Position numbers and translations under genes: made by a program. A model generated the notes under the pieces. That model worked only from the letters and a program-made list of their open reading frames with translations. It had not been told where the DNA came from and searched no databases. This document shows positions 3,477 to 15,905 of a stretch of 16,539 bases of DNA, piece by piece. Source of the stretch: a virus; the UHGV virus genome UHGV-0073462; one strand, written 5' to 3'. Within the stretch, counting starts at the first letter, position 1, and each line of letters begins with the position of its first letter.

Positions 3477-5420
3477 TTACGCGTTATTCACTTCCACCAC
3501 AATGCTGTCAATCAGCACCGGGTATGTTGCACCGTTAGTGATATCGGTCACGCGCAACTTGTCTGCCGTAAACGTGCCGACCGGAGACTGCGACAGCATG
3601 AACGGTGTCCCGTCCTGTCCATCAATCACCGGCGTCACCTGAATGCTGTTATTACCGGCAAAACGGAATGCCAGCGTATGCCATTCGTTATTAAATGCAC
3701 CGAATGAACCCAGCTTCGTGTTCTGGCCTGGATTACCCTTGTGGTACATCACGTTAAGGTCTGTGGCATCGCTCTGAACATAAAACGATGCCAGCAGGTT
3801 ATGACCGGCATTACCTTCCAGGGTAACCCCTTGTGGCAGGGCAGAAACCGGCCAGTACAGCGCCAGTGCGTACTGATTAGCCGTCAGTGTGCCGTCAACC
3901 TTAAACCGGCAGCTGACAAGACCACCTTTACCCAGCAGGTCTGCACCATTACCGGCATCATGCTCAAGGTACCAGGAGGATTTACCTGTTTCCTTGGTCA
4001 GTTTCATTGCCTTACCCCCGCTGGCTCCGGCATCATCCACGATTTGAGACTTGCCACCACCGGCAGTCCAGCCCTGTGGTGCCAGCTGTCCTTCAGACTC
4101 TGATGCCCGGTAAGCAAGCAACGTGCTCATTGTCGTTGTGTCAGCCGGTGGTGTGGACGGTTTTGATGGTGTATCAGGTGACGGCTTCTCATCCGGTGGT
4201 GTCACGGTCTGCCCGCGCATCAGTTCAGCCGTGCGCCCTGCATGGAGCATAATAGCTGAGGCCAGACGGTCTGAAATGACGCCCCTGCGTGCCCATGAGC
4301 TGAAATGGCTGTCACGCTGTGTCGAAACAAAACTGCCCTGGGTTCGGGATGCCGCACCGTAATACCCGACAGCCACAATATCCGGGTCTTCCGCCGGAGC
4401 ATTCGTTGGCGTGTTCTGTCCATTCTCATCCGTCAGGAACGGTACAAAGAAAATATTCTGTGCGGTCAGATTTTTATATGCGCCATAGACTGTTTCATAC
4501 TGCGTGGCATACGTGTTTTTCCAGTAATACGTGGTATCACCACAAATCCACGGCACCGTGCCAGCATTTCCACTCACGCACTGCGCTGCAAGTGGAGACA
4601 GGTCGGTTCTGAACTGCTGAACCATGGCTGTGAATAAACCATTATGCTGCTGACTTCCTGAAGCAAGGTCTGCCTCTCCCTGCATCCATACCACAGCCAG
4701 AAGTTTATTTTTCGGGTTCTTCGCCAGCGCCGCTCTGGTGCGACTGAGCAGGTCCTGATACAGGGGTTTACCGGCTCCCCAGCGTGAAGAATCAGCGGAA
4801 GCACCGCTGACCTCACTGAATGAGCCGTCGGCTCCGGTGGTAAATGCCGAACTGCCACGGCAACAGGACACCAGAAGTATACCGGCATTCTGCGGGATAT
4901 AAGGCAGCAGTTTTTTGGCAATATGCAGCCCCTGACCGACAGTCCCGTACTGGCCCTTACTCAGGTCTGCATGAGGATGGTTAAGTGCGCTCATGTCCTG
5001 AACATCATGCAGACAGTGGTCTGCCGGAATAACGTCATTGTATGCACAGGTATCACCACCCGGCGTCACAGTGCTGCGACGGGCCAGCTGCTTAATACGG
5101 GAGTCAGGTCGATCATAGGTCTGCGGCAGAGGAAGCCCCTCACCATAGGCCATACCGTTCGACTGCCCGGCCAGGGGAATAACGTAGTAATACTCCGGTT
5201 CAGTGATAGCCACTCCCGGAGAGCCACCAGCCCCTGTGTCGGGCACAACCACAGGCGTGGTCACATCACCCTCTGCGGCAATAGCCTGCATCAGTGTATA
5301 AGGAGTGATAGCCACAGGACTGCCAAATGGCTGCCACCCCTCCTTCAGTTTTTGAGTCAGTCGCTCCGCAAGGTCTGACGGCGACGCCGCCCTGACCACA
5401 TCGTAGTGTTTAAATGTCAT
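3477..5420 (-). CDS. nanS: prophage sialate O-acetylesterase (NanS-p / YjhS family; DUF1737 N-terminus plus SASA/SGNH esterase domain)
   Basis: 647-aa ORF with ATG at 5420 and SD GGGAGG. N-terminus MTFKHYDVVRAASPSDLAERLTQKLKEGWQPFG is DUF1737-like. Esterase motif YYYVIPLAGQSNGMAYGEGLPLP contains the GQSN catalytic-serine block. Position between Q/late leader and the holin matches NanS-p genes of Stx-type lambdoid prophages. Confidence 0.85.
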   Translation of the reverse strand: MTFKHYDVVRAASPSDLAERLTQKLKEGWQPFGSPVAITPYTLMQAIAAEGDVTTPVVVPDTGAGGSPGVAITEPEYYYVIPLAGQSNGMAYGEGLPLPQTYDRPDSRIKQLARRSTVTPGGDTCAYNDVIPADHCLHDVQDMSALNHPHADLSKGQYGTVGQGLHIAKKLLPYIPQNAGILLVSCCRGSSAFTTGADGSFSEVSGASADSSRWGAGKPLYQDLLSRTRAALAKNPKNKLLAVVWMQGEADLASGSQQHNGLFTAMVQQFRTDLSPLAAQCVSGNAGTVPWICGDTTYYWKNTYATQYETVYGAYKNLTAQNIFFVPFLTDENGQNTPTNAPAEDPDIVAVGYYGAASRTQGSFVSTQRDSHFSSWARRGVISDRLASAIMLHAGRTAELMRGQTVTPPDEKPSPDTPSKPSTPPADTTTMSTLLAYRASESEGQLAPQGWTAGGGKSQIVDDAGASGGKAMKLTKETGKSSWYLEHDAGNGADLLGKGGLVSCRFKVDGTLTANQYALALYWPVSALPQGVTLEGNAGHNLLASFYVQSDATDLNVMYHKGNPGQNTKLGSFGAFNNEWHTLAFRFAGNNSIQVTPVIDGQDGTPFMLSQSPVGTFTADKLRVTDITNGATYPVLIDSIVVEVNNA

Positions 5421-5547: not shown

Positions 5548-5602
5548 TTATGAATTCTGGTTAAAATCCATTCGATTATAAAAATGTATATCTCATGCTG
5601 TT

Positions 5603-5628
5603 GCCCGAACCCACTCGGGCTTTTTTTT
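5603..5628 (+). terminator. plus-strand intrinsic terminator (hairpin plus T8)
   Basis: GCCCGA-ACCCAC-TCGGGC hairpin followed by TTTTTTTT on the plus strand. Lies back-to-back with the minus-strand hairpin at 5641-5658. Confidence 0.5.
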
Positions 5629-5633
5629 GCCCA

Positions 5634-5658
5634 CAAGAAAGCCCCTCCGGAGAGGGGC
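5634..5658 (-). terminator. intrinsic terminator at the end of repeat module B
   Basis: Minus strand: GC-rich palindromic hairpin GCCCCTCTCCGGAGGGGC followed by TTTCTTG. Confidence 0.5.
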
Positions 5659-5870
5659 TAAAGCCGCGTATCTGTATCATCATGCACATGGTGCCGGGTG
5701 CCTCCCGGTGAGTTCAGCCAGGTGCCACTAAACCCGCGTCATTCTCGTTTTGATAATCAGAGATTATACCGTCACCAGTCGCCCCTCCGCTCAGGGGGAT
5801 TCACCATGCGAAATTTTTTTAACAAATGCCCAGTCTGACAGGCAACTGTCAACTTACTGAATTGTGAGCA
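5634..5870. repeat. late-leader repeat module, copy B (direct repeat of 6116-6352)
   Basis: Blocks shared with copy A at a constant offset of about 482 bp: palindromic hairpin GCCCCTCCGGAGAGGGGC, CATGGTGCCGGGTGCCTCCCGGTGAGTTCAG, GCCCCTCCGC(T/A)CAGGGGGATTCACCATGC, and TTGAC(A/T)...CTGAATTGTGAG. Minus-strand reading runs from a TTGACA -35-like hexamer to the terminator hairpin about 200 nt downstream. Confidence 0.6.
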
Positions 5871-5903
5871 ACATAGCATTTAACGGGGAACCTGTTTTCT
5901 GCA

Positions 5904-5932
5904 GTAAAAAGGCCCACCGGAGCGGATGGGCC
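5904..5932 (-). terminator. putative intrinsic terminator between the two repeat modules
   Basis: Minus strand: GGCCCA...TGGGCC hairpin followed by TTTTTAC. Confidence 0.45.
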
Positions 5933-6115
5933 TGGAAGGATAGCGGTCATGTGATGCCGGTTTCCCGGTAACTCAGCACCGGTATCTGAGTCAACGTTTT
6001 CTCTACTGGGTCATTTCCGATACACCTGCCTGCTGACAGGCTTTCATCACATCTGAAAATATAGCACCCTGACTGATACTGTAGTACCCAAGGTTCCAGA
6101 AACTGTGATGTATCC

Positions 6116-6352
6116 GGCACAGAAAAGCCCCTCCGGAGAGGGGCTGGAGAGTGGCGCTATGTGCCATTGCATGGTGCCGGGTGCCTCCCGGTGAGTTCAG
6201 TATCAGCACCTGAACCCGCACAGAAAGGATAAGGGTCGGTGACAAAACACCAGTTGCTGATTGCCCCTCCGCACAGGGGGATTCACCATGCCAGTTTCTT
6301 TTAACAAACTCCCCGCAAACCAGACAACAGTCAACCGCCTGAATTGTGAGGT
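6116..6352. repeat. late-leader repeat module, copy A (direct repeat of 5634-5870)
   Basis: Same conserved blocks as copy B in the same order. The TATAAT present in copy B is replaced by CTTATC here. Flanking sequence on the Q side (about 6353-6400) is still weakly similar to the inter-module spacer, so the duplicated unit is roughly 480 bp. Confidence 0.6.
6120..6144 (-). terminator. intrinsic terminator at the end of repeat module A
   Basis: Minus strand: GCCCCTCTCCGGAGGGGC hairpin followed by TTTTCTG. Confidence 0.5.
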
Positions 6353-6873: not shown

Positions 6874-7266
6874 CTAATCATTTTTTACTTTTTTGGGCAG
6901 CCAGTCGTCCATCTCCAGCCTTACACCCAGCATCGACAGACATCCGTCAATAAATCCTTCAGCAATCTGCATCTCAATTCGTATTGCCTTTTCGCTCTTC
7001 TTTCTTGTTCTGGCAATCTGCCTTTTTGATATGCGCAGCAGATAATGAGCTACCAGCAGCGAATACTCGTCCGGTTTTTTCTTCTTCAGGCGCGTAAGGC
7101 AGTTTTCGATGATAAGGCCGTCATCATCGCTGCAGGCCGGGCGAGGTTTAGCGGTGGATGGTAAAAGGCCTTTAAATCCAGCAGCTATCGGAGAATAGTC
7201 CACCCCGGCGTTACCACTTGCCGCCCATGCCCCCCAGCGTTCGAGAACCATCTGAATATCACGCAT
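6874..7266 (-). CDS. Q: late-gene antitermination protein Q (phage 82 / QuuD-like family)
   Basis: ATG at 7266 with SD GGAGA 7 nt upstream. Product begins MRDIQMVLERWGAWAA..., the N-terminus I recognise from 82-type Q / E. coli QuuD. Immediately upstream of the late leader and lysis genes. The track's longer start at 7281 is a non-ATG start I reject. Confidence 0.8.
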   Translation of the reverse strand: MRDIQMVLERWGAWAASGNAGVDYSPIAAGFKGLLPSTAKPRPACSDDDGLIIENCLTRLKKKKPDEYSLLVAHYLLRISKRQIARTRKKSEKAIRIEMQIAEGFIDGCLSMLGVRLEMDDWLPKKVKND

Positions 7267-7283
7267 CAACTTTCTCCACAAAA

Positions 7284-8273
7284 TCAGGACAGCACACCAA
7301 TCGCCAGCGCGCGATCGATAAAACGAAATATCAGCTCCAGCTGGGAGCCATACTTCTCTTCAAATGCCACGGTATCCGCATGCAGCTCGTCGTGATGCTT
7401 TCTGCACAAAGGCAACACAAAGAGGTCATGCGCTTTTGTACCCATTCCGCCCTGACCGTGACCTATCAGGTGGTGGGGATCATCAGCAGGTTTTCCACAA
7501 CATGCGCACGGCTGCGTCTTAACCCAGCGCGTGTACTTTTCATTAACCCAGCGGCGACGTTTTGGGCGTAACATAAAAGACTCCGGCGACTCCGGATCCA
7601 CTTTCAGCGCCAGCACCTTTTTCGCTTTATCCTGGATGATGCTGGTGGCAGGAACCGAAGGCACAAGGTCACTTTCCCGGGTGACAGACGGCACAACAGG
7701 CTTCGGTAATCTCAGTGCCTTACGGGCTGCGCTTTCCGGTAAGGCATCCGCCAGGTCATTACGAACCAGCCACCAGCACAGTTCCGGCATTGTCACAACG
7801 TGACTGTCATCAAAACCGAGATCCCGACGCACGACAGACAACACCCAGCGGGCACAGTTATCCGTTGCCATTGATTCCAGCCGTTCCGTGAACTGGTCAC
7901 GGAGGAGATTGTCACAGTGCCAGCACAGACGGATTGCGCCTGGCGCGTGCCGCATTGTGGTCATGTTCTCGCTGTGCCAGTCGGAATGAGGCCACTGACA
8001 GCCCTTTTCACGAAGTAACCAGCTCTCAAGGCATTCCACGCCACCAGCACGACGGATCACCGCCTCATTGCGGAACACGGCCCGAACGGCAGGATCATCC
8101 GCCAGCGGTTGTGATGCCGCCGGAACGGCACCACTGGCGAAAGATGAATAACGCTCCGGCTCAGGCTCCAGCAGGACACGCCCCTGCATAAACAGGGGCA
8201 TCAGCTCTGAACCTGGCCTGAACAATACGATCCCCATACGCGGGGCAATTTCAGGGGTCAGTAGTGCTCTCAA
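7284..8273 (-). CDS. nin-region protein with C-terminal DUF968 / HNH-like motif (YdfU-like)
   Basis: 329 aa. C-terminus CACCGKPADDPHHLIGHGQGGMGTKAHDLFVLPLCRKHHDELH carries the Cys/His pattern of DUF968 (HNH-like) prophage proteins. Probable TTG start at 8273 with SD GAGGT 6 nt upstream. Position directly before Q fits nin-region proteins. Confidence 0.65.
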   Translation of the reverse strand: MRALLTPEIAPRMGIVLFRPGSELMPLFMQGRVLLEPEPERYSSFASGAVPAASQPLADDPAVRAVFRNEAVIRRAGGVECLESWLLREKGCQWPHSDWHSENMTTMRHAPGAIRLCWHCDNLLRDQFTERLESMATDNCARWVLSVVRRDLGFDDSHVVTMPELCWWLVRNDLADALPESAARKALRLPKPVVPSVTRESDLVPSVPATSIIQDKAKKVLALKVDPESPESFMLRPKRRRWVNEKYTRWVKTQPCACCGKPADDPHHLIGHGQGGMGTKAHDLFVLPLCRKHHDELHADTVAFEEKYGSQLELIFRFIDRALAIGVLS

Positions 8274-8282
8274 CGTAGAACC

Positions 8283-8798
8283 TCACAGCACAATCTGTTT
8301 CAGTTTCTGTACCGCTTTCCCCATATCCGCCATAGCATCAACAAACTCATCAAATTTACGACTTGCCATTCCATACGCCTGGAGGATTTCCAGTTTCAGA
8401 GGATCCAGTTGCTTTTTAATTTCCGCACGATCATTAAATTTCTTCTCTGCTTCTTCCGCAGCCCTGATCAGCTCCTCAGCATGCCTGCGTAATTCATCCG
8501 GAGTAACGGTCTTTTTAATCACAACGGGTTCCTCTGTTTTTACTGGTATTTCACTATTTACTGCCTGATGTCCAAATTTAGGATGATGTAACGTTGTAGT
8601 TCTTCCATCATTCGCAACGACCAGAAGTCCACTGTCGCGGATAATGCCAATGAGTATCTCCTTATCCCTTTTATTCAGTAGACTGTACGCCTGCACTTTC
8701 TGTGATATCTGGGTCAGTGTTGCGCCTTCCGGCATTCGTTCAACAAAACGTTTAACCCTGGATAAAACTGGCTGCAGATGGGGTGGTGTAATTCTCAT
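8283..8798 (-). CDS. hypothetical protein (171 aa), possible winged-helix N-terminus and helical C-terminus
   Basis: ATG at 8798 with SD GGGAGG 8 nt upstream, overlapping the stop of the KilA-N gene. No domain recognised. Confidence 0.6.
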   Translation of the reverse strand: MRITPPHLQPVLSRVKRFVERMPEGATLTQISQKVQAYSLLNKRDKEILIGIIRDSGLLVVANDGRTTTLHHPKFGHQAVNSEIPVKTEEPVVIKKTVTPDELRRHAEELIRAAEEAEKKFNDRAEIKKQLDPLKLEILQAYGMASRKFDEFVDAMADMGKAVQKLKQIVL

Positions 8799-8813
8799 GC
8801 TCCACGCCTCCCA

Positions 8814-9629
8814 TCAGTGAACGGTATCGAGCAGCTTTAACAGCTCAGGGAATCGGGATTCGAAGAAATGCGGCTGCGTCTCGCGCGGATTTGCAGGACT
8901 GGTGATGTTCTTGCCGAACATGCAGCCTTTCGCTGTCAGCGACCAGAATTTTTTGATGTTGTTAATCGCGGTACGGCTGTATCGTTCGCGCTGCTCGACG
9001 ATCCCCAGTTTCACCATCTGGTGATATGCCTGATTAGCCGTCAGGCGGATACCATACTGCTTCAGCAGTGCACTCAGCGACAGCGTAGGGCGGCTTGAAC
9101 CATCTGGCGCATCAGCAGGTGCATCAATGGCATAGATCGGCATAAGTTCAGGAAGACCAGCTACCTTTGATAATTTCTGGTATGCACCAAGTTTCGAGGA
9201 GTTTGACAGATTTAGAGTCTTTGCTGCTGATTCAAGCAGAATGACCCCGGATTTAATTTTGTCGGATGTGGTTTCTTCTGGTGATGAATTATGAAGCGCA
9301 TCGAAAGTACGTATCACTTTTAAGCTGAATGCCGGGCTGATCCACATTGCATATGCATAGACCAGCTCTTTACAGACATACGTCCCACCATTGCGCCCCT
9401 GAATGGTGATGACAGGAATACTACGGGAATCTCCCGTAGTTTCTTCTTCCAATAATTCCACAAGAGCCTTCGTTTCAGGACGACGCATAAACTCGTGAAC
9501 TTCCAGCGAACGGGAGGAGCGATTCTCACCAGCGGCAAGAAGAGCAGCTTTCTGAAGGTCGTTAAGACAGTAGTTAGATTCGAAGTACTGGCGCACAGAA
9601 ACGCCATCAATTACAAGCAACTGATTCAT
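8814..9629 (-). CDS. KilA-N domain protein, antirepressor-like (KilA-N N-terminus with ANT/KilAC-like C-terminal region)
   Basis: ATG at 9629 with SD GGAGA about 5 nt upstream. N-terminal region ...YCLNDLQKAA...GTYVCKELVYAYAMWISPAFSLKVIRTFD matches the conserved core of the KilA-N (APSES-like) domain. The C-terminal half resembles antirepressor C-domains, less certainly. Confidence 0.7.
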   Translation of the reverse strand: MNQLLVIDGVSVRQYFESNYCLNDLQKAALLAAGENRSSRSLEVHEFMRRPETKALVELLEEETTGDSRSIPVITIQGRNGGTYVCKELVYAYAMWISPAFSLKVIRTFDALHNSSPEETTSDKIKSGVILLESAAKTLNLSNSSKLGAYQKLSKVAGLPELMPIYAIDAPADAPDGSSRPTLSLSALLKQYGIRLTANQAYHQMVKLGIVEQRERYSRTAINNIKKFWSLTAKGCMFGKNITSPANPRETQPHFFESRFPELLKLLDTVH

Positions 9630-9727
9630 TGGTTTCTCCACAAATTTTTATCCACGAGCGGGACTGCACTCCCTTTTCGTTGATGCAGGATGAACTTACT
9701 GCGATTTTTAATAGTTATCAAGGATAC

Positions 9728-9745
9728 ACTGTTCATAAATACAGT
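9728..9745. promoter_or_regulatory. LexA-binding site (SOS box) in the promoter region of the KilA-N gene
   Basis: aCTGT-TCATAAAT-ACAGt fits the E. coli LexA consensus CTGT-N8-ACAG with an AT-rich spacer and correct flanks. It is the only such site I found in the window. Lies 80-100 bp upstream of the KilA-N start, next to -35/-10-like hexamers on the minus strand (TTGAGC-17-TATTAC, and TTGATA-17-TAAGTT). Confidence 0.6.
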
Positions 9746-9791
9746 ATCTTTAACGAGGTAATACCCAAATTTAGGGTGTTGCTCAATTCCG

Positions 9792-10187
9792 TTACCGAGT
9801 TGCTAATTTGCAACTCGCTTTTTCGTACTTACTGATAGTGATCTCGACCTTCCCTTCCGGGATAACCGGTCCCCACTCCACCAGCATTCTTTTCACCTGG
9901 CTGTCGTCTTCCCACACACCCGCGTGGGTCAGAACGTCAAACAGCGCCTTGTTATAGTTGTCCAGATCGCGGATCCTGTTATCCGGAGGAAACAACACAA
10001 TCTCTACTGAAGCAGGTGCCGACGTTGGTTTCGGCAGACGACGTAACTGCTCAACTATTGCTGCACACGCCGCGCTCTGGAATTTTCGCCCCGCCGCGCT
10101 TATCAGGCTCTTACCAGCAAACGCCCCTTTGTTAGGGTGTCGCCAGTACGTGTTCACGCTGGGCGGAAAAGGCAGTATTAGCTTCAT
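9792..10187 (-). CDS. rusA: Holliday-junction resolvase RusA (crossover junction endodeoxyribonuclease)
   Basis: 131 aa, MKLILPFPPSVNTYWRH...DLDNYNKALFDVLTHAGVWEDDSQV matches the RusA family pattern (PPS.N..Y; DLDN; D-D). ATGA overlap with the upstream gene. Confidence 0.85.
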   Translation of the reverse strand: MKLILPFPPSVNTYWRHPNKGAFAGKSLISAAGRKFQSAACAAIVEQLRRLPKPTSAPASVEIVLFPPDNRIRDLDNYNKALFDVLTHAGVWEDDSQVKRMLVEWGPVIPEGKVEITISKYEKASCKLATR

Positions 10188-10510
10188 ACTTTCAGGCCCC
10201 TCTCATGTAACCAGTGGGCTGCACGCAGCCTGGCGTTTGCCTCACCGGCAAGCAGGGCGCGGATAATCCCGACCGCCTCGCTGTCGTCGTCCTTCACCGC
10301 GGTATGAAGAGTGATACCCCGGGCCACGCCACGCTTTATCGTGATGACACCTTTTTTCTCCAGTGCTCGAAGATGCTCCACCGCTGCATTCACCGAACGG
10401 TATCCCAGCATGGTTGCCACCTCCTGATTGGTTGGCGGGAAGCCACGTTCTTTCTGATAAGAAATCAGCATATCCAGCACCTGCTGCTGGCATTGAGTTA
10501 ATGTCGTCAT
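10184..10510 (-). CDS. LexA N-terminal DNA-binding-domain-like protein lacking the S24 peptidase domain
   Basis: 108 aa. MTTLTQCQQQVLDMLISYQKERGFPPTNQEVATMLGYRSVNAAVEHLRALEKKGVITIKRGVARGITL aligns by eye with E. coli LexA residues 1-70, including recognition-helix residues (S-x-NAA-x-EHL). No catalytic Ser/Lys domain follows; a short helical tail instead. ATGA overlaps on both sides. Confidence 0.75.
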   Translation of the reverse strand: MTTLTQCQQQVLDMLISYQKERGFPPTNQEVATMLGYRSVNAAVEHLRALEKKGVITIKRGVARGITLHTAVKDDDSEAVGIIRALLAGEANARLRAAHWLHERGLKV

Positions 10511-11158
10511 GCCGCCATCTCCCTGACCAGTTTTTCCGCCTGCTGGCGAACCTGCGCCAGAAAGGCCTCACCACATGCCTCAAGTTCATCGCGCCCGATG
10601 TAGCTGATTGCCGCTCCCTTCCAGGTCTTGTCGAAAACAGCAATAGCACCAGCGAAGAAAGCACCTGTTGGCACCTGCTTTTCGTCTTTCGGGATAAACC
10701 AGGCTGGCAGTTCAAAACCAATACGCCCGCGAATAAAAGCAATATGATCTGCATCTTCCGGCCACCACACTTCGCTGGTGGCCGCTTTGATCAGGAAAAC
10801 ATAGCGCCCGCCTTTATCACGCATGGCACTGGCATGCTTCATGATGTAACGCATGCCGGTGATGTATTGTCCCTCATGCTGACTGGCGCGGCTGTACGGG
10901 GGATTACCAAAGGCAGCACCTTTAAGCTCCGCAAGACGTTCTGACCAGTCATGTGCCAGCGCGTTGTCTTCCGCCGTGTAATACGCGGCACATTTGGCGT
11001 TATCACCGTCAGTAAACAGATCCAGAACAAACGGGCCAAACAGGGTGTTAATTCCCCAGAAAATGTTGTCCGGCGTGCGCCACTGATCGCCCACTTCCTT
11101 CAGTTCATGGGCTGGTTTGTTCCGTAGTTCCACCAGCGCCTGGCAATATTTATTACTC
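10507..11158 (-). CDS. phage orphan N6-adenine DNA methyltransferase (Dam-type)
   Basis: 216 aa from ATG 11158 (MSNKYCQ...). Contains the NPPY catalytic motif (GAAFGNPPYSRAS). TAATG overlap with the upstream gene stop. No adjacent restriction endonuclease candidate. Confidence 0.8.
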
Positions 11159-11159
11159 A

Positions 11160-11648
11160 TTAAGCCCCCACGTAATTCCCTGACAGATACCACTCATCAC
11201 CCGCTACAGCGCGCTTTCTGCTTTTCCGTAAGCACCGCTCACGACGCGCCAGAAAATTGTTTCGTTCTGGCTGGGAGTGGCTTTCACGGAATGCCGCCAT
11301 CCACACGGTTGCAGCACGACGGTATAAGCCCCTGGACTCCAGTTCTTCCGCCTGGCGGGTCAGGCACAAAATCACCCGGGGATCGTTAGTGCCGACATAG
11401 AAATTGCGCACAGGTATGGTTTCAAGAACAGGTTGCAGTTTCTCCTCCTGCGATATCTCAGCCTGGTGTGGGAAATGTCTGCGTGTTTTCCCTTCACAAC
11501 AGTGAGCCACACGGCCACTCTGACGTAACTTGCTTGCTGACTGCAGAACGCACTGTCGTGAGTAACCAGCAAAAGCATCCGCAATGTCACCTGAAGTACA
11601 CCCCGGATGGGCTTCAATGAATTTCTGTACATCGTTCATCAGACTCAT
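11160..11648 (-). CDS. putative transcriptional regulator with PerC-like C-terminal motif and HTH-like N-terminus
   Basis: Segment RGLYRRAATVWMAAFRES...RRERC resembles the PerC-family signature (GLWRRAA..W) of PerC/Pch prophage regulators. N-terminus DVQKFIEAHPGCTSGDIADAF looks HTH-like. Start ATG 11648, or GTG 11654 overlapping the upstream stop. Moderate confidence in family. Confidence 0.5.
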   Translation of the reverse strand: MSLMNDVQKFIEAHPGCTSGDIADAFAGYSRQCVLQSASKLRQSGRVAHCCEGKTRRHFPHQAEISQEEKLQPVLETIPVRNFYVGTNDPRVILCLTRQAEELESRGLYRRAATVWMAAFRESHSQPERNNFLARRERCLRKSRKRAVAGDEWYLSGNYVGA

Positions 11649-11650
11649 GA

Positions 11651-12634
11651 TCACCCCCTGAATCCTGTCGGGATCTGGCTGTAGTCCACGTTGTCGTAAC
11701 TGGCTTTGAAGTACGGGTCCTCGCGTCTGGCTGCAGATACCGCAGGAACTTCCCAGGATTCTTCGAAATGACGATCCGGACCAAAGAACGTGACAGCCTG
11801 TTTCACAAATTGTGTGCCGCTATTGCCCATCGCAGATACCCAGCCCGCGTAGCGTTTCACACCTTCCAGCATGGTTTCGGGGTTTACCCCCTCGTTCAAA
11901 CGGGCTTTCCAGGCTTTGAAGGCTGCTGATTTTGAATTGCCACCAGCACGTTTGGGATATTCCTGCCAGGCCTGTTCAAATTCCGGTGAATATTCCTGTC
12001 GGGCAGAACGCGCTGGCGCAGACGCGTCAGCGGATGCATCAATAGTGTTTTTAGTCTCCGTTGTAATCTCTGTAGTAATCTCTGTATTTGTATCAACATT
12101 CGGCGTATCCCCTGTTCCGTTATGACGTCGGGGGGTGTTCCGTTTTAACGTAATAGCTGTATCGCTGATTGCATTATTGCTGTTACTTTCTGGCGAAACA
12201 GAAGAAGGTGTGGTGATGGCCGCAATTGCCTGTGGGTTGATCCCGACAAACAAAATATTGCTGCATTTCACCCCATCGAGCATTTCCACCGTGCGTAAAT
12301 CCAGAGTAATAAACCCTGCATCGCGCAGACGCTTCAGCGCATCTGCGGTTTCCCTTTTCCCGAAACCAAACTGCTCAGCAAACGCCTGGTAGCTTCTTTG
12401 CAGTTTGTCGCCCTGAAAACGCTTGCGATATCCCAGCAACGCTCCGGTGTGCTCATCCCTGACCTCTGTCGGGCGGTACCAGTAAACGATCTCTGAAAGC
12501 AGAGCGATAGCCGTCGCATCCGGACGCCCACTGGGTAGTCGAATATATTTCCACCAGGTCGCAGGTGTAACATTGCCGGAAATATTAATTTGACCAATAG
12601 CCATAACTTCCGGTGTGGGGGCGTAACGGCTCAT
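11651..12634 (-). CDS. putative replication initiation protein (lambda O-like position; family not firmly identified)
   Basis: 327 aa. Gene contains a tandem DNA repeat encoding TEITTEITTET, reminiscent of iterons embedded in lambda O. Conserved-looking C-terminal block EFEQAWQEYPKRAGGNSKSAAFKAWKARL. Sits in the cII-to-nin interval. Family call is inference. Confidence 0.5.
   Translation of the reverse strand: MSRYAPTPEVMAIGQINISGNVTPATWWKYIRLPSGRPDATAIALLSEIVYWYRPTEVRDEHTGALLGYRKRFQGDKLQRSYQAFAEQFGFGKRETADALKRLRDAGFITLDLRTVEMLDGVKCSNILFVGINPQAIAAITTPSSVSPESNSNNAISDTAITLKRNTPRRHNGTGDTPNVDTNTEITTEITTETKNTIDASADASAPARSARQEYSPEFEQAWQEYPKRAGGNSKSAAFKAWKARLNEGVNPETMLEGVKRYAGWVSAMGNSGTQFVKQAVTFFGPDRHFEESWEVPAVSAARREDPYFKASYDNVDYSQIPTGFRG
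12063..12086. repeat. tandem 12-bp direct repeat (2 copies of GTAATCTCTGTA) inside the O-like gene; candidate iteron / origin element
   Basis: Perfect tandem copies at 12063-12074 and 12075-12086, with degenerate flanking copies (TTTGTA, CCGTT). Confidence 0.5.
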
Positions 12635-13151: not shown

Positions 13152-14308
13152 TTGCGCCCCCTTACCTCTGAAGGGTTCAGCGACAAATTTATGAGACTGG
13201 CCAGTAGCGCCGCGTCGTTGATGCGGTCATACAGACTTACAGCCAGCGGGGATTCGGCTTTTGCCAACATGGGATAAAGCTGCTGCAGCCAGACCTTGTG
13301 GATTACCGACAGGTGGGAGTAAAGCACGCTGGCGTTATCTGCGGCATCGCTCAGCGTGGATGGCTTTGAAAGCAGTTTTTCCATCTGGTTAAAGGCATTG
13401 ATGTATGCCTCTTTGAACCGGGCAGCACGTTTACCCGTGAAACCCATAGCAAGAAACGCAAAACCGTCTCGTGTGATTTGATAGCAAGGGAGCTTGCGTG
13501 TACCACCGTTCGGTTGATTTACCGAAATCGATGTCTCCGCAAAATTGCGGGCACAAAACTCTGGGGAACAATCCAGAGTGCGGATCTTTTTCAGCACATC
13601 GTCGTGACGCTTGGAGAAGGAGTTGGCAACAGCCAAAGAAGTGGTAACGGCCTGGCCGTTGTCAATGGTGATTTCAGGTTGAGTGAGGGCTGGGTTCGTA
13701 GCCATGATGGCAGCCTCCGTTGACAGTGAAAAACTTCCACCACCGGAAACGCCAATTTCACTGGTGGTGAACTGGACGGGGTTGGCGTAACCGGCGTCAA
13801 CGGAGACCGGCGCACCTTTCGGTGCCCCCGCCCAGCCCACCATAATCTGGATGTGAGCAAATGCGGACGATAAAAAAGACGCTGGCGCGTCATACATCGC
13901 CGTTGACAATTTCAGGACGCCAATCCCGGCACCCGCTTTATAAGGTGCCTGAACAGTGTAACGTCCCGGAATGGCAGAATCAATATGCTGGTGGTCCTTC
14001 ACACTCAACAAAATCACGCCTGAATTTCCACAAAGGACTAAAGCACTCATGCGGGTAGTCTTTGCGAAGATAGATAACGCGCTGTGTTTCTGGCTCCCAA
14101 CGAATAACATGGACATAAAGCCCTCTTCCGTCACGAAACCAGCGGTTAAGTTCCTGCACAACTCGCCCCCCACAGTCAGGTAAAGTTCTCTGTGGTTACT
14201 TACAGCCAGGTGATTTGGTAATCTGCATTCATGCCGTAACAACAGGTGTTCAGCGACGCTGACCACCAGCTGTTGCGACAAACGGTTATTTGCCGTTAAA
14301 CTATTCAT
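13148..14308 (-). CDS. Rha-domain phage regulatory protein with a roughly 200-aa N-terminal extension of unknown nature
   Basis: Residues about 205-315 (MATNPALTQPEITIDNGQAVTTSLAVANSFSKRHDDVLKKIRTL...YQITRDGFAFLAMGFTGKRAARFKEAYINAFNQME) match the Rha (Phage_pRha) domain. The ORF stays open about 600 bp upstream to an ATG at 14308 that overlaps the CII-like stop (ATGA). No other long ORF covers 13750-14308. Confidence 0.6.
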   Translation of the reverse strand: MNSLTANNRLSQQLVVSVAEHLLLRHECRLPNHLAVSNHRELYLTVGGELCRNLTAGFVTEEGFMSMLFVGSQKHSALSIFAKTTRMSALVLCGNSGVILLSVKDHQHIDSAIPGRYTVQAPYKAGAGIGVLKLSTAMYDAPASFLSSAFAHIQIMVGWAGAPKGAPVSVDAGYANPVQFTTSEIGVSGGGSFSLSTEAAIMATNPALTQPEITIDNGQAVTTSLAVANSFSKRHDDVLKKIRTLDCSPEFCARNFAETSISVNQPNGGTRKLPCYQITRDGFAFLAMGFTGKRAARFKEAYINAFNQMEKLLSKPSTLSDAADNASVLYSHLSVIHKVWLQQLYPMLAKAESPLAVSLYDRINDAALLASLINLSLNPSEVRGRK

Positions 14309-15212: not shown

Positions 15213-15905
15213 ATGAACATAGGAAATCGAGTCAGACAACTTCGCCAGGCGAAGAACATGAAAATCGCCGATCTCGCTGAAGCAATAGGAGTGGATGCGG
15301 CGAATATCTCGCGCCTCGAAACAGGTAAGCAGAAACAATTCACTGAACAAGCCCTGAGTAATATTGCCAGGAGCTTAGGTGTTGATATTGCTGATCTCTT
15401 TACCTCAGACCTCAAAAGTAATACTGTATGTAAAAACAGTATTAGTGAGGATGTTGCGCAGGTGAAGGATGTATTCCGTATTGAAATGCTGGATGTCAGT
15501 GCCAGTGCGGGAAATGGCCTTATCCAGGGCGGTGATGTCATTGATGTGATTCATGCCATTGAATACAGAACTGATAATGCTGTATCGATGTTTGGTGGAC
15601 GACCAGCAAATCACATTAAAGTTATCAACGTTCGTGGGGACAGTATGTGTCCAACCATTGAGCCAGGAGATCTCATCTTCGTTGATATCAGTATCAATCA
15701 GTTTGATGGGGATGGTATCTATGTGTTTGGTTTTGATGATAAAATTTATGTCAAACGACTGCAAATGATACCTGACAAACTACTGGTAATTTCTGATAAC
15801 CAGATTTACCGTGAATGGGGAATTACCAGCGAAAATGAACACCGGTTTATGGTCTTTGGAAAGGTCTTAATCAGCCAGTCACAAACCCTTAAGCGACACA
15901 ATTAA
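15213..15905 (+). CDS. cI: CI-type prophage repressor (N-terminal HTH plus C-terminal S24 LexA-like autopeptidase domain)
   Basis: 230 aa. HTH (MKIADLAEAIGVDAANISRLETGKQ), S24 peptidase motifs (GDSMCPTIEPGDLIFVD; downstream KR in IYVKRLQ). Little or no leader before the ATG, as for lambda cI from pRM. Confidence 0.9.
   Translation: MNIGNRVRQLRQAKNMKIADLAEAIGVDAANISRLETGKQKQFTEQALSNIARSLGVDIADLFTSDLKSNTVCKNSISEDVAQVKDVFRIEMLDVSASAGNGLIQGGDVIDVIHAIEYRTDNAVSMFGGRPANHIKVINVRGDSMCPTIEPGDLIFVDISINQFDGDGIYVFGFDDKIYVKRLQMIPDKLLVISDNQIYREWGITSENEHRFMVFGKVLISQSQTLKRHN

Follow-up and report, generated by a model that had tools for sequence, protein, structure and literature searches.

A predicted winged-helix protein encoded by an optional nin-region gene of lambdoid E. 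coli prophages

A conserved gene behind KilA-N

The virus genome UHGV-0073462, analysed here as one window of 16,539 nucleotides (nt), spans the early-right region and the nin region in a lambdoid prophage of E. coli, which reads along the minus strand. Directly downstream of a KilA-N domain gene lies an open reading frame (ORF) for a protein of 171 amino acids (aa), the subject of this work. The ORF, the three parts of its predicted product and the junction with KilA-N are listed below, with pN and pS denoting the proportions of nonsynonymous and synonymous differences and pLDDT the predicted local distance difference test score.

8283..8798, minus strand: ORF of the 171-aa protein, an optional nin-region cassette, supported by ORF calling, homologues, an indel alignment, pN/pS and GC content
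8565..8798, minus strand: residues 1-78, predicted basic winged-helix domain with helices 9-20, 28-34 and 43-56, wing strands 60-63 and 68-71, and a conserved HHPKFGH tail
8505..8564, minus strand: residues 79-98, linker, poorly conserved and of variable length, predicted to be disordered (pLDDT <50 for residues 80-98)
8286..8504, minus strand: residues 99-171, predicted helical C-domain, shared across the wider family as its constant module, with a 3-4 heptad pattern and invariant Pro133
8807..8812, minus strand: Shine-Dalgarno sequence GGGAGG of the 171-aa ORF, read from the sequence, 8 nt before the ATG
8814..9629, minus strand: KilA-N domain gene of an antirepressor-like family (PF04383, E 1.3e-15; phrog_129; RefSeq annotation KilA-N)

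The 171-aa ORF starts with ATG, ends at the stop codon 8283-8285 and is separated by 15 nt from the KilA-N gene, whose own ATG at 9629 is preceded by GGAG (the mechanically called ORF reaches a GTG at 9641). The original prediction placed the ribosome-binding site of the 171-aa ORF across the KilA-N stop codon; in fact GGGAGG begins 1 nt past this stop (8814-8816) and abuts it without overlap. A scan of 8100-10300 revealed no terminator-like site on the minus strand, and so none between or after the two genes. Because the gap is only 15 nt, the ORF has its own Shine-Dalgarno sequence and no terminator intervenes, KilA-N and the 171-aa ORF, as read from the sequence, almost certainly share one transcript for their translation, on which point the original prediction holds.

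Proteins with 60-90% identity to the 171-aa product are present in Salmonella, Citrobacter, Klebsiella, Raoultella, Pantoea and Plesiomonas. Comparison with seven homologues from other genera gave a pN of 0.14-0.28 against a saturated pS of 0.71-0.90, indicative of strong purifying selection. Because it is conserved across genera with a pN far below pS, the ORF represents a real gene, and the possibility of a chance ORF was rejected. The N-terminus is conserved as MR(I/T/V)TPPHL in the family alignment, which fixes the start codon. The GC content of the ORF is 44.2%, compared to 48.7% for KilA-N and 56.6% for the DUF968 gene. Its DNA is 99.6% identical to that of a "hypothetical protein" of the Stx1 phage Lys8385Vzw, and the protein has a 100% identical counterpart, WP_001223333, in E. 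coli 2013C-3264, where the prophage gene order is also identical. The exact protein was found on at least 1000 public contigs. Pathogenic E. coli carry it in their prophages, for instance in an Stx1 phage of O103:H11 and in O121 strains.

Predicted structure and family architecture

The 171-aa protein has a calculated mass of 19.4 kDa and an isoelectric point (pI) of 9.4. A full-length AlphaFold2 model, built on a 24-sequence alignment, showed a confident winged helix at residues 9-71 (pLDDT ~90), in which a three-helix bundle is followed by a two-stranded β wing, and then a disordered linker and a helical C-terminal part; this predicted fold agrees with the possible winged-helix N-terminus and helical C-terminus of the original prediction. 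The head comprising residues 1-78 carries a net charge of +6 (pI 10.6), and the winged-helix domain is net positive in 98% of 95 family copies, so that the computed surface charge is compatible with nucleic-acid binding. The C-domain, which is neutral to acidic, was modelled as a helical hairpin in the full-length run and as one long helix (pLDDT 91.5) when modelled alone on a 75-sequence alignment. Its a/d positions are 81% hydrophobic, with a heptad stutter at the invariant Pro133, and it has a set of invariant polar surface residues (R104, E118, R124, Q130, E137, Q140, R147, K148, D150, D154 and K165). In view of these models, the C-domain likely serves in coiled-coil oligomerisation or in docking to a partner.

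An exhaustive profile search retrieved 86 representative proteins of the family. Across proteins of 170-545 aa, hidden Markov models of the individual domains revealed one, two or three winged-helix copies preceding a common C-domain, and the C-domain model matches at the C-terminus in almost every relative of sufficient length. Some relatives have an additional N-terminal AP2-like domain, which is recurrent and scores below the Pfam gathering score, and one group has a Cys4 zinc-ribbon-like insert; weak Pfam matches to AlpA and to HTH_52 occur in one relative each, with their positions unmapped. No Pfam domain was found in ten long relatives (409-545 aa). Informative domain fusions were sought in the long relatives and rejected, as the extra length consists of repeats of the same winged-helix domain. 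Overall, by sequence, the C-domain is what stays constant in the family, and what varies appears to be modules of nucleic-acid-binding type.

Database searches with the 171-aa protein gave no match in Pfam (best E 0.099), none above the cut-off in NCBIfam and nothing significant in a sequence profile search of the PDB. The protein is a direct member by sequence of PHROG 2539 (E 4.2e-68, in two stretches covering both domains) and also matches PHROG 2565 (E 4.4e-17), both of which are clusters of unknown function with no literature. None of the Pfam and NCBIfam profiles of characterised nin-region and antirepressor families (NinB/Orf, NinG/Rap, NinH, Roi, KilA-N, AntA, Ant, Rha) matches it significantly. 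Accordingly, it bears no motif that can be named from Pfam or NCBIfam, as originally stated, and with PHROG 2539 as its assignment it is not a recognisable, well-characterised nin-region protein. All database names of homologues read "hypothetical", apart from one RefSeq record; its name, "pseudouridine synthase family protein", has no profile support and was treated as an annotation artefact.

Foldseek searches with the model returned generic winged-helix matches, apart from the Hop2 and Hop2-Mnd1 entries considered below. The closest known winged-helix proteins are regulators of the MarR, ArsR-SmtB, PadR and BlaI-MecI type and the viral proteins PyrSV gp04 (2vxz) and STIV F93 (2co5), none of which has a detectable sequence relationship to the 171-aa protein. 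These regulators dimerise via helices packed on the winged helix, whereas in the 171-aa protein a disordered linker sets the helical module apart as a separate, conserved domain, for which Pfam has no model. Within the lambda nin region, NinH is a small Fis-like DNA-binding protein encoded just before Q. Similar to NinH, the 171-aa protein is small, dispensable-looking and probably DNA-binding, and its gene is mosaic, variably present and located a gene or two before Q. They differ in that the 171-aa protein has a winged helix instead of a Fis-like helix-turn-helix (HTH); there is no sequence similarity between the two, and no Pfam nin family matches the 171-aa protein.

An optional cassette in a mosaic early region

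Phages SfIV and PhiR49_1 possess the same RusA, SOS leader and KilA-N as the window and then pass straight into DUF968, without the 171-aa ORF. The alignment against them is interrupted sharply at two points, the KilA-N stop and the stop of the 171-aa ORF, which define a gene-sized indel. The 171-aa gene is an optional, independently assorting cassette consisting of the ORF only; the same alignment showed no cis site carried with it, and the only repeats near the cassette are two-copy repeats at chance level. In a survey of 5426 complete E. coli genomes, the gene was present in 84 and the box-bearing SOS leader in 185, with leader, KilA-N and 171-aa gene contiguous in 28 of the 84 gene-bearing genomes. 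KilA-N homologues occur in ~2280 of the 5426 genomes, mostly with DUF968 directly after.

Across 83 phylogenetically redundant loci with close homologues, the gene upstream is KilA-N in 58, AntA in 18, Dam-type in three and another gene in four, and DUF968 lies directly downstream in 74. Homology between the window KilA-N and Citrobacter AntA was considered as a cause of the shared neighbour and rejected, as sequence comparison detected none. Homologues of ~60-75% identity follow Dam or unknown ORFs and are themselves followed by a PF03589 antiterminator, by a PF06530 Q past one ORF, by an ORF6N protein or by an unknown gene. In the nin-region loci examined, the gene stands zero to two genes before the late regulator. 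A Providencia relative adjoins a YqaJ-domain gene and an ORF resembling single-stranded DNA-binding protein (SSB), the latter recognised by sequence only. Relatives of ~40% identity are located in the pL operon of the Stx phages 75/02, POCJ13 and phiSTEC1589, right after an unannotated N-like ORF with an arginine-rich motif. In Shigella phage 75/02 Stx (KF766125.2), this unannotated ORF spans 5638-5982, has the N-type motif GTAASRRRAHRAELQ and probably encodes the N antiterminator of the phage. It fills a 670-nt "gap" that follows the repressor, and its stop is overlapped by the start of the distant homologue. The constant feature of the 171-aa gene is its membership in early operons, not KilA-N or LexA.

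The KilA-N gene is preceded by a leader of 162 nt that separates it from RusA and contains the following elements.

9727..9746, minus strand: LexA (SOS) box TACTGTATTTATGAACAGTG, found by motif scan and matrix score, its 3' end 97 nt upstream of the KilA-N ATG
9693..9721, minus strand: promoter-like pair TTGATA-17 nt-TAAGTT, read by eye and below the scan threshold, starting 5 nt downstream of the box

The box has a CTGT-N8-ACAG core at 9729-9744, one of three such motifs in the window compared to 0.33 expected. With a LexA-box matrix built from a set of E. coli SOS boxes, the 20-mer scored 21.6 bits, within the range of proven boxes; the training median is 20.0 bits and the maximum of 200 window shuffles 19.4 bits. 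No consensus sigma-70 promoter overlaps the box on either strand, by scan or by eye. Citrobacter, Phytobacter and Raoultella also show a TTGAnn/TAnnnT pattern where they align with the TTGATA/TAAGTT pair; an alternative pair upstream of the box, TTGAGC-17-TATTAC, is without the invariant last T. Placed ahead of the TTGATA/TAAGTT pair, the box would be in an unusual position for repression. Hence, of the SOS-box-controlled KilA-N gene originally proposed, a genuine high-scoring LexA motif stands, and the promoter over which LexA would act is not apparent. In the lineage of the window, SOS control of KilA-N and, by read-through, of the 171-aa ORF is plausible.

At the homologous site upstream of KilA-N, E. 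coli and Shigella have the best boxes, at 21.6-23.4 bits. Raoultella/Klebsiella-type loci reach 14.9-16.6 bits; Citrobacter-type loci and several others, in which a half-site reads GTGG, give ~12-13 bits, and Phytobacter-type loci 6-8 bits. In Citrobacter, Phytobacter and Raoultella, the coding 3' end of rusA constitutes this box-like sequence. The leader also contains a hairpin, GGGA-GUGCAG-UCCC (9660-9673, minus strand), with a conserved loop and with compensatory stem changes across genera (GGGC...GCCC, GGCGG...CCGCC). Phages that have no leader use this hairpin sequence to encode the RusA tail "...TAGAAA", and for this reason the leader looks like a remnant of the rusA 3' end. The box is not conserved together with the 171-aa gene, being absent from Lys8385Vzw, Salmonella and more distant loci; in Lys8385Vzw and the Salmonella loci KilA-N abuts rusA, and leader and box are both missing. 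One Salmonella sequence (GCA_048695095.1, 2810-3200) has a 360-nt rusA/KilA-N space with an apparent truncated extra copy of the KilA-N N-terminus before the full gene, which looks like mosaic churn at this junction. Judging by these loci, the SOS link of the 171-aa gene appears limited to some phage lineages instead of being a general property. The description of its product as a second SOS-induced effector thus lacks support as a general statement, given that the cassette assorts independently, the leader is contiguous in 28 of 84 genomes and box-free loci exist.

Two further elements of the window bear on LexA. A second and stronger box, TACTGTATGTAAAAACAGTA (24.7 bits, 15422-15441), lies inside a CI-like S24 repressor ORF (15213-15905, plus strand), in the linker that connects the HTH to the peptidase domain; the otherwise similar prophage of 2013C-3264 showed no such box over the locus examined, which may not span the whole repressor gene. 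In addition, a 108-aa protein encoded upstream of RusA has a LexA-like recognition helix, SVNAAVEHLRAL, and is without a cleavage or peptidase domain, and could, on its sequence, be an uncleavable LexA mimic acting on the prophage's two SOS boxes. A published phage LexA homologue, gp6 of phage GIL01, is reported to activate late genes (PMC6182141). The block of this LexA-domain gene, RusA, KilA-N, the 171-aa gene and DUF968 recurs in Salmonella, and its first four genes in a Raoultella contig that ends at the 171-aa homologue.

Further genes and elements of the window, in the order of minus-strand reading, are as follows.

11651-12634, minus strand: O-like gene, by ORF and profile assignment
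11160-11654, minus strand: PerC, by ORF and profile assignment
10507-11193, minus strand: Dam, by ORF and profile assignment
10184-10510, minus strand: 108-aa protein with a LexA DNA-binding domain only (PF01726, E 3e-19)
9792..10187, minus strand: RusA Holliday-junction resolvase (PF05866)
9796-9817: palindrome CGAGTTGCAAATTAGCAACTCG at the rusA end, from a terminator scan; a terminator-like hairpin only on the plus strand, where a T-run follows
7284..8273, minus strand: DUF968/HNH gene of the YdfU family (PF06147, E 2.5e-81), starting 9 nt after the stop of the 171-aa ORF
6874..7281, minus strand: Q antiterminator (PF06530, E 3.3e-52), the end of the nin region

The palindrome could stop antisense transcription from the SOS-box region. 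In the early-right region, Rfam models identified C4 antisense RNA (81 bits) and isrK (62 bits) at 13760-13847 and 13872-13948 on the minus strand; such elements are known from ant control in P1/P7 and from Salmonella Gifsy-1. Downstream of Q are two copies of the small RNA STnc100 (5629-5838 and 6115-6320, minus strand) and AsxR (5573-5625, plus strand). No stx genes were noticed between Q and a 647-aa ORF (3477-5420), where no search aimed at stx was made; Lys8385Vzw carries stxAB at the position matching this interval, and the prophage looks like an stx-less relative of an Stx phage.

Proposed role and alternatives

We favour a reading in which the 171-aa protein serves lambdoid phages as a delayed-early accessory protein that oligomerises and binds DNA through its winged helix, to which we assign a probability of about 0.45. 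Gene status, predicted fold, charge, heptad pattern, family architecture, cassette nature and operon position are direct results, and we infer DNA binding, oligomerisation and the timing of expression. The protein would be soluble and modular, with a basic winged-helix head that binds nucleic acid, most likely double-stranded DNA, and a flexible linker of 20 residues connecting this head to an amphipathic heptad-repeat helix of ~70 residues. The C-terminal helix would oligomerise, probably into a dimeric coiled coil or a four-helix bundle, or would dock onto a conserved partner. The gene would be read as a delayed-early nin gene from antiterminated transcripts initiated at pR, along with RusA, KilA-N, DUF968 and Q; we take this ordinary expression as the default because the cassette assorts independently of KilA-N, leader and box. 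In the lineage of the window, a LexA-gated start ahead of KilA-N may serve it as well. Since the cassette carries no linked cis site, its product is suggested to act in trans, be it on generic DNA, on that of host and phage or on a protein that many hosts share, instead of on a dedicated site. The extra modules of the relatives, all of which appear to be of DNA-binding types, support the DNA-binding part of this reading, and the presence of the gene in early operons throughout the loci is in keeping with the whole. Three points weigh against it: the AP2 matches in relatives fall under Pfam's gathering score, the two AlphaFold2 runs disagree on the C-domain (hairpin versus single helix), and a literature search returned nothing on the RefSeq accession of the protein or on KilA-N together with "SOS box".

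A different account takes KilA-N and the 171-aa gene as a LexA-repressed operon of two genes or longer, in which DNA damage would induce both before or independently of repressor loss, with KilA-N as antirepressor or killer and the 171-aa protein as its helper or a second effector. Its appeal lies in a LexA box that outscores every window shuffle, in weaker box-like sequences of 12-17 bits at the homologous site in Raoultella/Klebsiella-type and Citrobacter-type loci, in the 15-nt junction with no terminator, and in the antirepressor-like gene directly upstream in 76 of the 83 loci, where KilA-N and AntA are unrelated in sequence. There is also a precedent in the Gifsy prophages, which have a LexA-controlled operon (a dinI homologue, an antirepressor and irsA) downstream of the replication genes, with a terminator-like palindrome before it (PMC3121763). 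Compared to the operons of Gifsy-1/2/3 (dinI-gftA/gfoA-irsA), coliphage 186 tum and N15 antC, the window shares with the Gifsy type an early-right LexA box past replication genes and a palindrome, an antirepressor-family gene and a small co-transcribed gene (PMC3121763); its own palindrome ends rusA ~50 nt before the box. However, the proteins are unrelated, the box of the window overlaps no recognisable promoter, with the best candidate putting LexA at about -41 to -60, and most phages bearing box and KilA-N are without the 171-aa gene. The box-bearing leader adjoins the gene in only a third of the target-bearing complete E. coli genomes (28/84), the same leader and KilA-N occur without it in SfIV, PhiR49_1 and many genomes, and more distant homologues have neither KilA-N nor box. 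The neighbour counts come from redundant loci and may reflect shared ancestry of the block. Moreover, the prophage repressor is a LexA-family S24 protein of the self-cleaving type, and because it should cleave itself, the prophage needs no antirepressor. Altogether, we regard this operon as an unlikely explanation of the 171-aa gene.

Somewhat less likely still is a host-directed adaptor for anti-defence, superinfection exclusion or host takeover, whose C-domain would bind a host protein and whose winged helix would be an interaction or localisation module. An ORF-only cassette that assorts independently with no cis site would suit such a role, as would the many invariant polar surface residues of the C-domain, which exceed the needs of simple dimerisation, and the long multi-domain relatives, two of whose contigs contain only genes of unknown function. 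By contrast, a search with the PADLOC defence and anti-defence models gave no significant match, only sub-threshold Csm2-like helical ones (E 0.002-0.005, 16-17 bits), and both the strong basic charge of the head and the fusions to DNA-binding domains speak for nucleic acid. Ranking lower again, and doubtful in our view, is a recombination accessory factor in which winged helix and coiled coil bind DNA and aid a recombinase or nuclease in the manner of eukaryotic Hop2-Mnd1, with RecA, Red-beta/RecT, RusA or the Ref-like HNH of DUF968 as candidate partners. Like this meiotic recombination complex with its long kinked coiled coil, the 171-aa protein has an N-terminal winged-helix head followed by a predicted long coiled coil, and Foldseek lists the Hop2 winged-helix domain 2mh2 at rank 7 (E 0.088) and Hop2-Mnd1 4y66_F at rank 19 (E 0.14, 138 aligned columns spanning head and helix). 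The company of recombination genes is suggestive as well: the gene lies between RusA and DUF968, PF16786, a RecA-dependent nuclease family, is also matched by short DUF968 proteins of related loci, and distant homologues are found in operons with Exo, RecT and Gam or beside the YqaJ-domain gene and SSB-like ORF. Yet recombination genes are normal nin and pL content, which makes the neighbourhood weak evidence, and with E values of 0.09-0.14 and a root-mean-square deviation of 15 Å over the long alignment, any winged helix with a long helix would match in this way. In addition, Hop2-Mnd1 passes from head to coiled coil without a disordered linker, and it has no sequence similarity to the 171-aa protein.

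The most far-reaching proposal is also the least probable, and we consider it decidedly improbable. It envisages the 171-aa protein as the founding member of a modular phage family with one to three winged-helix (or other DNA-binding) heads on a coiled-coil tail, which in enterobacterial lambdoid prophages would partner antirepressor-type KilA-N/AntA. In the lineage of the window, a LexA-gated module, possibly re-closed by the phage's uncleavable LexA-domain protein encoded two genes upstream, would allow a prophage to sense DNA damage and to target, in trans, DNA or the repressors of other prophages in the same host. Were SOS gating of the KilA-N module true, Gifsy-type antirepressor crosstalk would extend to E. 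coli and Shigella prophages, a consequence that concerns KilA-N and its box more than the 171-aa ORF.

The 171-aa gene represents an uncharacterised family, yet an ordinary kind of object for a nin region. Its product is common on public contigs and present in prophages of pathogenic E. coli, yet has no name, Pfam family or literature. The lineage-specific tie to an SOS box guards against over-reading operon position in mosaic phage genomes, and the picture of a basic winged helix on a conserved, putatively coiled-coil tail offers a testable hypothesis together with a domain definition that may seed a family model.
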